The position numbers were made by a program, and so were the translations under genes. This document shows, piece by piece, positions 63,523 to 63,984 of a stretch of 64,000 nt of DNA. Location: the NCBI RefSeq assembly GCF_003334385.1, contig NZ_QOWN01000012.1. One strand, given 5' to 3'. The notes beneath the pieces were generated by a model that searched no databases, was not told the DNA's origin, and worked only from the letters and a program-made list of their open reading frames with translations. This DNA is from Escherichia coli. GTDB lineage: Bacteria; Pseudomonadota; Gammaproteobacteria; Enterobacterales; Enterobacteriaceae. Every line of letters starts with the position of its first letter. The stretch's first letter is position 1.

Positions 63523-63984
63523 ATGGCAATTCCATATGAACCAGCGGAGTTCAAGAAAGAAGCTTTTAACTGTCCGTACTGTCAGGCGTATGCTAAGCAA
63601 AAGTGGGACCAATTATTTCCTTACTATGATGAAATGGCTTTCCCTATGCATGTGTCACAATGTGAGCGCTGTGAGGAGTACTCATATTGGTTTGAGGAGT
63701 CCCTCCTAATTCCTGCATCTGCGAATGTTGAAATGCCGAACCCAGACATGCCGGAGGATTGTAAGTCCGACTACATGGAAGCCAGGAGCATCGTCAATCT
63801 GTCTCCTAAAGGGGCCGCTGCACTTCTCCGTCTATGTCTTCAGAAACTGATGGTCCACTTGGGCGAGCCGGGGAAAAACATTAACGACGACATTAAGTCT
63901 CTCGTGGAAAAAGGGTTACCTCCCATAAGCGCTAACTTAAGGGTTGAACCATCTGAAGAATGCGACGCCTCGGTGCCTCGTTAA
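63523..63984 (+). CDS. Hypothetical protein: N-terminal CxxC...CxxC zinc ribbon plus DUF4145-like C-terminal helical domain, 153 aa
   Basis: CPYCQ (res 17-20) and CERCEE (res 47-52); C-terminal segment [41 protein letters not shown] resembles DUF4145; ATG directly abuts the integrase stop (TAAATG). Confidence 0.6.

Follow-up and report, generated by a model that had tools for sequence, protein, structure and literature searches.

A RAZR (PD-T7-4) anti-phage gene that breaks off at an IS186 end in a glyU islet of Escherichia coli

PD-T7-4, since renamed RAZR for ring-activated zinc-finger RNase (Zhang et al., Nature 2026, PMC13017515), is an abortive-infection system encoded by a single gene (PMC13017515). 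Its Cys4 zinc ribbon contacts the phage trigger, Gp77 or portal, and sets specificity; the triggers described are the portals of phages T7, T3, and SECphi18 and the Erf-like Gp77 of SECphi27 (PMC13017515). These phage rings bend RAZR oligomers into a ring, with 24 protomers around the trigger, and the ring-activated DUF4145 domain, a divergent HEPN RNase (R146, H154), cleaves tRNA, rRNA, and mRNA, and translation stops (PMC13017515). The substitutions R146A and H154A abolish defense, substitutions at D179, D180, and R184 impair activation, and a three-residue deletion in the linker (delta-AGN) abolishes both complex formation and defense (PMC13017515). The RAZR gene confers protection by itself if the DNA naturally upstream of it is cloned along with it, 200 bp in the case of RAZR-Kv (PMC13017515); the abortive-infection phenotype and ring activation are published for RAZR-Ec and RAZR-Kv only.

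Two earlier reports bear on the architecture of the family. DUF4145 was placed in the HEPN superfamily in 2013, with zinc-ribbon fusions and restriction-modification and abortive-infection contexts listed (Anantharaman et al., PMC3710099), and the overlap or association of PD-T7-4 with an integrase was reported in 2022 (Vassallo et al., PMC9519451). The mechanism and the cryo-EM structure (2026) and the integrase association (2022) are already known, and the locus described here is a further allele, most likely inactivated by an IS.

The stretch of DNA analyzed (the window, 64,000 nucleotides in all) is E. coli chromosome carrying xdhABC, actS/ygeR, and glyU. An Rfam search of the window returned ordinary E. 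coli RNAs only, among them Sib RNA, 6S RNA (ssrS), and REP-derived naRNA4 at 3979-4129, 4778-4961, and 18472-18549. Related loci are cited by locus number where coordinates in them are given. The part of the window leading up to the open reading frame (ORF) of interest contains the following features:

61707-61780, + strand: tRNA-Gly(CCC) gene glyU, the integration site of the islet (ARAGORN and Rfam tRNA; tRNA-Gly is annotated in all related E. coli records)
61752-61780, + strand: attL core, which is the 3' end of glyU (repeat search on H7, L001)
61915-63522, + strand: tyrosine integrase of 535 aa (ORF list, NCBIfam, and the annotation of RefSeq relatives as 'site-specific integrase')
63508-63514, + strand: Shine-Dalgarno sequence AAGGAGG within the 3' end of the integrase gene, 8 nt before the ATG (sequence)

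With tRNA-Gly(CCC) upstream of the integrase, the ORF is indeed the first cargo gene of a tRNA-integrated islet, as the first-pass annotation had supposed. In the H7 genome (L001), the attL core at 20053-20081 recurs 4.77 kb downstream, at 24821-24849, as an imperfect direct repeat (27/29 bases identical); equivalent repeats are found in L003 and L004, and the attR copy falls outside the window. These glyU-end repeats, 4.77 kb apart, delimit an H7 islet in which the integrase and RAZR are accompanied by an Ant-like gene and a further ORF, and which is inserted in front of the ETT2 remnant. The integrase and RAZR are retained in other alleles, but the rest varies and often includes IS elements.

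Residues 240-523 of the integrase match the NCBIfam XerA/XerD/XerC models (E about 1e-12 to 1e-13), and among phage proteins it is closest to integrases that temperate Pseudomonas phages of the T7-like kind encode (tblastn E 7e-59, with 31% identity at 96% coverage). The similarity to temperate T7-like phages, such as Pseudomonas phage vB_PsyP_3MF5 (Autographiviridae, Warsawvirus), extends over the full length of the protein, including a long N-terminal region, and reaches 41% identity when the integrase of a Pseudomonas islet is compared, against 31% with that of the window (integrases compared: window 61915-63522; L012 39455-40963; L120 2499-3950). The islets differ from these phages in being 4.8-6.4 kb long and in lacking phage RNA polymerase, replication, and structural genes.

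The ORF occupies 63523-63984 on the + strand and has 153 codons, its ATG starting on the base that follows the integrase TAA at 63520-63522 (TAAATG). This junction is common to the H7, O103:H2, and M217 alleles and K. pneumoniae, while RAZR-Ec-type alleles show an 8-nt overlap instead; TAAGGAG is conserved upstream of the RAZR start in all integrase-linked alleles. The features that had drawn attention to the ORF, namely the reading frame itself, the TAAATG junction, and two cysteine pairs about 27 residues apart, are all present, far beyond chance: CPYC spans residues 17-20 and CERC residues 47-50, with 27 residues from C20 to C47, and all four cysteines are invariant in an alignment of 10 homologues. 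As to the co-expression with the integrase that was read earlier from the junction, co-transcription or translational coupling is plausible because the abutting or overlapping junction is conserved, but it is not required, given that the singly cloned gene and its own upstream DNA are enough for defense. Scans of 61700-64000 detected no sigma-70 promoter within 200 nt upstream of the ORF, a result that is uninformative on an internal promoter, and no terminator between the integrase and the ORF.

A position right after or overlapping the integrase, conserved across genera, would also suit an integrase accessory factor, either an excisionase or a recombination directionality factor, and such homologs had been named in the first-pass annotation as grounds against a defense role. 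We reject this reading, to which we attach next to no probability: Pfam and NCBIfam searches gave no helix-turn-helix or excisionase family match (the NCBIfam search of the ORF returned nothing meaningful, its one anti-sigma match at E 0.039 being far below cut-off), and the gene is strongly homologous, over its full length, to an RNase for which an anti-phage phenotype has been demonstrated. Homologues of RAZR are also found where no integrase of this kind is present, in L009, L010, 70 non-enterobacterial loci, prophages, and a filamentous phage. The last of these is the 11.5-kb Vibrio phage 10N.261.54.B5_PE001 (Tubulavirales), which encodes a homologue with 40% identity, annotated PD-T7-4 (L013 9123-9788); further homologues are carried on Streptococcus prophages.

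The PADLOC profile for PD-T7-4 (PDLC04109) matches the window product with E 3.1e-59 and 198 bits, residues 4-134 aligning with profile positions 3-136/211. The window copy thus falls short of full-length profile coverage; the intact H7 allele covers 3-209/211 (E 2.9e-100). The intact allele also matches PDB 9Y9C chain OA (RAZR-Ec; E 1e-102), the one solved structure found, which is the RAZR chain of the RAZR-Gp77 cryo-EM complex (PMC13017515). The parts of the RAZR gene present in the window are as follows:

63523-63924, + strand: native part of the RAZR/PD-T7-4 gene, codons 1-134 of 209 (PADLOC; alignment to intact alleles and RAZR-Ec)
63523-63717, + strand: zinc-finger domain (ZFD), residues 1-65, with C17/C20 (63571-63582) and C47/C50 (63661-63672) (invariant cysteines)
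63712-63753, + strand: conserved ZFD-HEPN linker, aligning with RAZR-Ec residues 66-79, IPAAGNVELPNPDM
63754-63924, + strand: N-terminal fragment of the DUF4145/HEPN domain, residues 78-134, ending 10 residues before the catalytic Arg (Pfam)

The resemblance to DUF4145 proposed earlier is borne out by a Pfam profile search, and the combination of a zinc ribbon and DUF4145 is real. The Pfam DUF4145 model (PF13643) matches residues 86-137 of the window product significantly (E 1.1e-6), yet over model positions 2-55/88 only and without the Rx4-6H-type motif; in the intact 209-aa allele, it matches residues 86-160 (model 2-79/88). The helical C-terminal segment in which DUF4145 had been perceived is of two kinds: its beginning is the first part of a HEPN domain, and the rest consists of IS-derived residues. 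C17, C20, C47, and C50 align with the ZFD of PDB 9Y9C and form a putative Cys4 zinc ribbon. The guess of a defense role was also well placed, since the family is PD-T7-4/RAZR, an abortive-infection RNase established by experiment, and the function then described as unknown has a published mechanism and cryo-EM structure (2026).

The closest described system is RAZR-Ec of E. coli UMB1727 (PMC9519451, PMC13017515), with which the locus shares the Cys4 ZFD, the conserved linker, the DUF4145/HEPN domain, and the position as first gene after a glyU-integrated integrase. In strain 2013C-4538 (L007), a gene whose product is 100% identical to RAZR-Ec likewise lies at glyU and adjoins an integrase of this kind. 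RAZR-Ec and the intact allele of the window lineage are 74% identical overall and 88% identical in the linker plus HEPN domain, and the intact allele keeps the catalytic R-x7-H motif and the D-D-R oligomerization residues. There are two differences: the window copy is cut after residue 134 and is without the active site, and the ZFD of the window allele is only 38% identical to that of RAZR-Ec, against the 88% in linker plus HEPN; the ZFD is the variable part of RAZR. This low identity agrees with the published role of the ZFD in setting specificity (PMC13017515), and, judging by the ZFD-swap experiments, the intact allele would probably recognize triggers differently from RAZR-Ec. DS-38 (DefensePredictor preprint 10.1101/2025.01.08.631726) likewise combines HEPN with a zinc finger, but according to the preprint its resemblance to PD-T7-4 is confined to the HEPN domain, the zinc fingers being different; the lineage of the window gene is that of PD-T7-4 and not that of DS-38.

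The native reading frame does not continue to the end of the ORF, the remainder of which is made up of these features:

63924-64000, no strand assigned: end of an IS186/IS421 element, terminal 77 bp, with the 23-bp inverted repeat CATAAGCGCTAACTTAAGGGTTG at 63924-63946 (sequence identity, junction register)
63925-63984, + strand: IS-derived read-through tail, 19 codons and TAA (translation; no counterpart in any intact allele)

We compared 61700-64000 with 5426 complete E. coli genomes by megablast. Three genomes (H7, SY3626, and EC24) are identical to the window but for one base, and each of the three alignments breaks off at query base 2225, corresponding to position 63924 of the window; the single mismatch to H7 over 61700-63924 lies at 63840 and is synonymous. 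The intact gene in H7, SY3626, and EC24 is 630 bp long and encodes 209 aa. Beyond the break, bases 63925-64000 (76/76) are 100% identical to a multicopy element found at 8422 places in 2144 E. coli genomes. One of these places, the nupC-pdeA site (L002), adjoins an 'IS4-like element IS421 family transposase', and this IS421-family element is IS186. Comparison of the two ends of the nupC-pdeA copy defined the 23-bp inverted repeat CATAAGCGCTAACTTAAGGGTTG. The junction register is the same in both places, AGGGTTACCTCC|CATAAGCG in the window (the element beginning CATAAG) and GGGGATCATTCC|CATAAGCG in the genuine nupC-pdeA copy. The element extends past the last base of the window; its transposase would be encoded on the - strand.

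The target in the window is GGG-N6-CCCC, which is the target preference of IS186. The classic hotspot of this element is the lon promoter. The window junction resembles known IS186/IS421 (IS4 family) insertions in its 23-bp terminal inverted repeat, its 100% identical end, its GC-rich target, and its register at nupC-pdeA; it differs from the classic cases in that the target is a defense gene. The insertion is seen in one sequence, in which the window shows 77 bp of the element and one end only. We infer a simple insertion with the 3' gene fragment beyond the IS, in which case a 10-11 bp duplication of GGGTTACCTCC(C) would be found beyond the element, followed by CGCATCCAGCAAGC..., that is, RAZR codons 135-209.

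Could the junction be an artefact of assembly or a chimeric read, with the gene intact in the real genome? Multicopy IS186 can mislead assemblers, and the junction was found in no other public sequence searched: it is absent from the 5426 complete E. coli genomes, and a 40-mer across it has 0 matches in GTDB representative genomes and 0 in JGI metagenome contigs. The break nevertheless falls exactly on the first base of the IS186 inverted repeat, at a GGG-N6-CCCC site and in the genuine register, and such a fit to the target preference of IS186 would not be expected from a random misjoin, so that an artefact appears very improbable.

The first-pass annotation had taken the ORF for a complete protein of 153 aa. 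It is a chimera and not a natural protein, because homology to the intact gene stops at 63924 and the rest is the end of IS186: the C-terminal 19 residues (codons 135-153) and the stop are IS sequence. A complete zinc-ribbon/DUF4145-like protein, perhaps needing a downstream nuclease, ATPase, or HEPN partner, would account for the start, Shine-Dalgarno sequence, and stop of the ORF and for the significant DUF4145 match. All 10 aligned homologues, however, are 206-220 aa long and continue past the point where the ORF switches to IS186, the stop codon lies inside the IS inverted-repeat region, and no natural 153-aa homologue with such a C-terminus is on record; the exact 153-aa product has no record in the sequence databases searched. 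RAZR works as a single gene, so no partner is needed downstream and the partner-gene reading is rejected. The alignment thus refutes a complete protein, which we consider even less probable than an assembly artefact.

The residues R146 and H154 of RAZR-Ec correspond to R144 and H152 of the intact allele (L001), and D179, D180, and R184 to D177, D178, and R182. In the alignment, all five lie beyond residue 134, so the window product has none of them; the 10 homologues show no variation at R144 or H152. Very probably, the ORF preserves the 5' two-thirds of an anti-phage RAZR (PD-T7-4) gene into which IS186 has inserted, and the locus is an inactivated defense gene. IS186 would have landed after codon 134, in its GGG-N6-CCCC target, and translation would read 19 codons into the element before reaching a stop. 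The encoded product would still have its sensor domain and linker and the beginning of the HEPN fold, but would be without the catalytic Arg and His and the helix for higher-order oligomerization, leaving it with no RNase effector activity. The window copy is most likely non-functional because R144/H152 and this helix are removed, a conclusion drawn by analogy with mutants of a homologue that is 74% identical.

A truncated protein might still be made and be partly active, as a decoy or inhibitor of portal or Gp77 rings or as a dominant negative against intact RAZR. The ZFD, linker, strong Shine-Dalgarno sequence, and start codon are all intact, and ZFD dimers make the Gp77 contacts and determine specificity in the cryo-EM complex (PMC13017515). 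Against partial activity, a broken HEPN fold that runs into 19 residues of foreign origin would probably fail to fold properly or be degraded, and the complex needs both ZFD-HEPN coupling (delta-AGN) and HEPN-mediated oligomerization (PMC13017515). Every reported defense phenotype depends on the catalytic His, and no second RAZR copy is seen in the available part of the genome. Residual activity of this sort seems unlikely, although it is the least improbable of the alternatives to an inactivated gene.

RAZR-family DNA is present in 344/5426 complete E. coli genomes, and relatives were confirmed at 329 places in 100,044 species-representative genomes. The glyU islet has been struck repeatedly by IS elements: IS100 splits the integrase in strain K99B, copies of IS3, IS66, IS2, and IS1 lie in other islet alleles, and IS186 lies in RAZR of the window (IS hits at L008 1241-4801, L003 10339-11552, L007 7500-10115, L011 8268-10426, and window 63924-64000).

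In intact islets, the genes downstream of RAZR match only Ant, KilA-N, or Rha-like regulator families, with no replication or packaging gene recognized. PADLOC applied to six of these downstream genes gave only a weak KilA-N match to PD-T4-2_B (E 4e-5). Phage satellites (P4-like, PICI, PLE, and PICMI) combine an integrase with helper-induced expression and with replication and packaging-redirection functions of their own. The intact relatives have an integrase and promoters of the phage RNA polymerase type, while replication and packaging genes of the satellite kind are not recognized.

Intact integrase-RAZR islets, known here from E. coli, Klebsiella, Citrobacter, Enterobacter, Buttiauxella, and Edaphovirga, carry 1-4 promoter-type 23-mers of the T7 supergroup immediately behind the RAZR stop codon, always on the same strand as RAZR. 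Together with the leader element described below, these features of intact relatives, all outside the window, are located as follows:

L003 8476-8498 and 8585-8607, + strand: promoter 23-mers
L004 8467-8489, 8494-8516, 8561-8583, and 9022-9044, + strand: promoter 23-mers
L006 5656-5678, + strand: promoter 23-mer
L008 5478-5500 and 5997-6019, + strand: promoter 23-mers
L011 5432-5454, + strand: promoter 23-mer
L094 4642-5218, + strand: promoter 23-mers, present also in L095, L096, L098, L099, L101, and L102
L120 4652-4679 and 5710-5738: TAAAAACCCTCACTATGGACACAGGGGC-type copies of Pseudomonas quercus right after RAZR, the first 14 nt being the 3MF5 specificity half
L001 22949-23069, L003 8965-9088, L004 9440-9561, and L094 5617-5738, with 10 more loci: structured leader

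The exact T7 consensus TAATACGACTCACTATAGGGAGA is found in O103:H2 12009, M217, 13P484A, and K. pneumoniae ATCC 13883; K11-like AATTAGGGCACACTATAGGGAGA, T3-like AATAAACCCTCACTATAGGGAGA, and ACTAAACTATCACTATAGGGAGA-type copies are seen as well. Allowing no more than 1 mismatch, CACTATAGGGAGA was matched 21 times in 190 kb from 17 loci, where 0.23 matches would be expected, and every match lies 2-564 nt after the stop. Two of the variants match exactly sites in IMG/VR contigs of 39-42 kb, the K11-like variant in several same-strand copies per contig. In the Pseudomonas quercus islet, TAAAAACCCTCACT... occurs twice and equals the specificity half of the annotated promoters of the Pseudomonas T7-like phage 3MF5. 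The promoters of the islets thus appear, from these sequences, to track the T7-like phages of the host genus, being T7, T3-like, and K11-like in Enterobacterales and 3MF5-like in Pseudomonas. The H7 lineage, to which the allele of the window belongs, has degenerate copies only, which we regard as decayed because the H7-type variant is in no IMG/VR contig.

A blastn search of the RAZR-downstream region against phage genomes found a 28-bp identity to the T7 phiOR promoter and one weak AT-rich match, with no extended T7-like homology, so that a simple prophage remnant has no direct support. The AT-rich match concerns a stretch with repeated CTTAAAG downstream of the tandem promoters (L003 about 8795-8880, with equivalents in L001 and L004; L005 2501-2594), which is 74.7% identical over about 90 nt (E 3e-4) to the intergenic region after the RNA polymerase gene of the T7-like Pasteurella phage PHB01; this is too weak to conclude from. 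In T7, the primary replication origin follows the RNA polymerase gene.

In every islet with such promoters, a structured element of about 85 nt with three helices and 24 pairs lies just upstream of the Shine-Dalgarno sequence and ATG of the variable gene after RAZR. A covariance model finds it once per islet, at 13 enterobacterial loci and the Pseudomonas locus. The alignment of these loci puts 97% of cells in pairs, with slid controls at 37-55%, and compensatory changes occur in 9/24 pairs; a caveat is that the alignment had been fitted to the model. Rfam gave no match in the RAZR-downstream region. The leader may serve in RNase III-type processing or in the control of translation. Where the large integrase is missing ahead of RAZR (L009, at the thrW locus, and L010, at glyU with no adjacent full integrase), phage-type promoters and structured leader are missing too. 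The distribution suggests that integrase, phage-type promoters, and leader travel together.

Taken together, the promoters, the leader, and the lineage of the integrase suggest an islet that responds to the RNA polymerase which an invading T7-like phage brings in. The disrupted gene could then be one module of an undescribed small integrative element that is tuned to T7-like phages and switched on by phage RNA polymerase, a proposal that we put forward tentatively and at somewhat short of even odds. In order, such an element would comprise an integrase of the type known from temperate T7-like phages, RAZR, 1-4 promoters, the leader of about 85 nt, and a variable Ant, KilA-N, or Rha-like gene. 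Switching by phage RNA polymerase could yield a second, polymerase-sensing defense layer, satellite-like induction or replication, or mobilization. The window shows only the integrase and the IS-broken RAZR of this module. Our literature search found no description of T7-type promoters in chromosomal islands or of T7 satellites, and no published account of the promoter-leader architecture, which is a more interesting lead than the ORF in the window.

For the annotation of defense systems, the window copy should not be counted as functional, although PADLOC-type HMMs still give it E 3e-59; the copy illustrates how IS traffic erodes abortive-infection genes. With a sensor only 38% identical to that of RAZR-Ec, the intact allele could help to work out what determines the choice of phage ring trigger by RAZR zinc fingers. 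If the proposal is true, the integrase-RAZR-promoter-leader module would be a natural host element wired to phage RNA polymerase.
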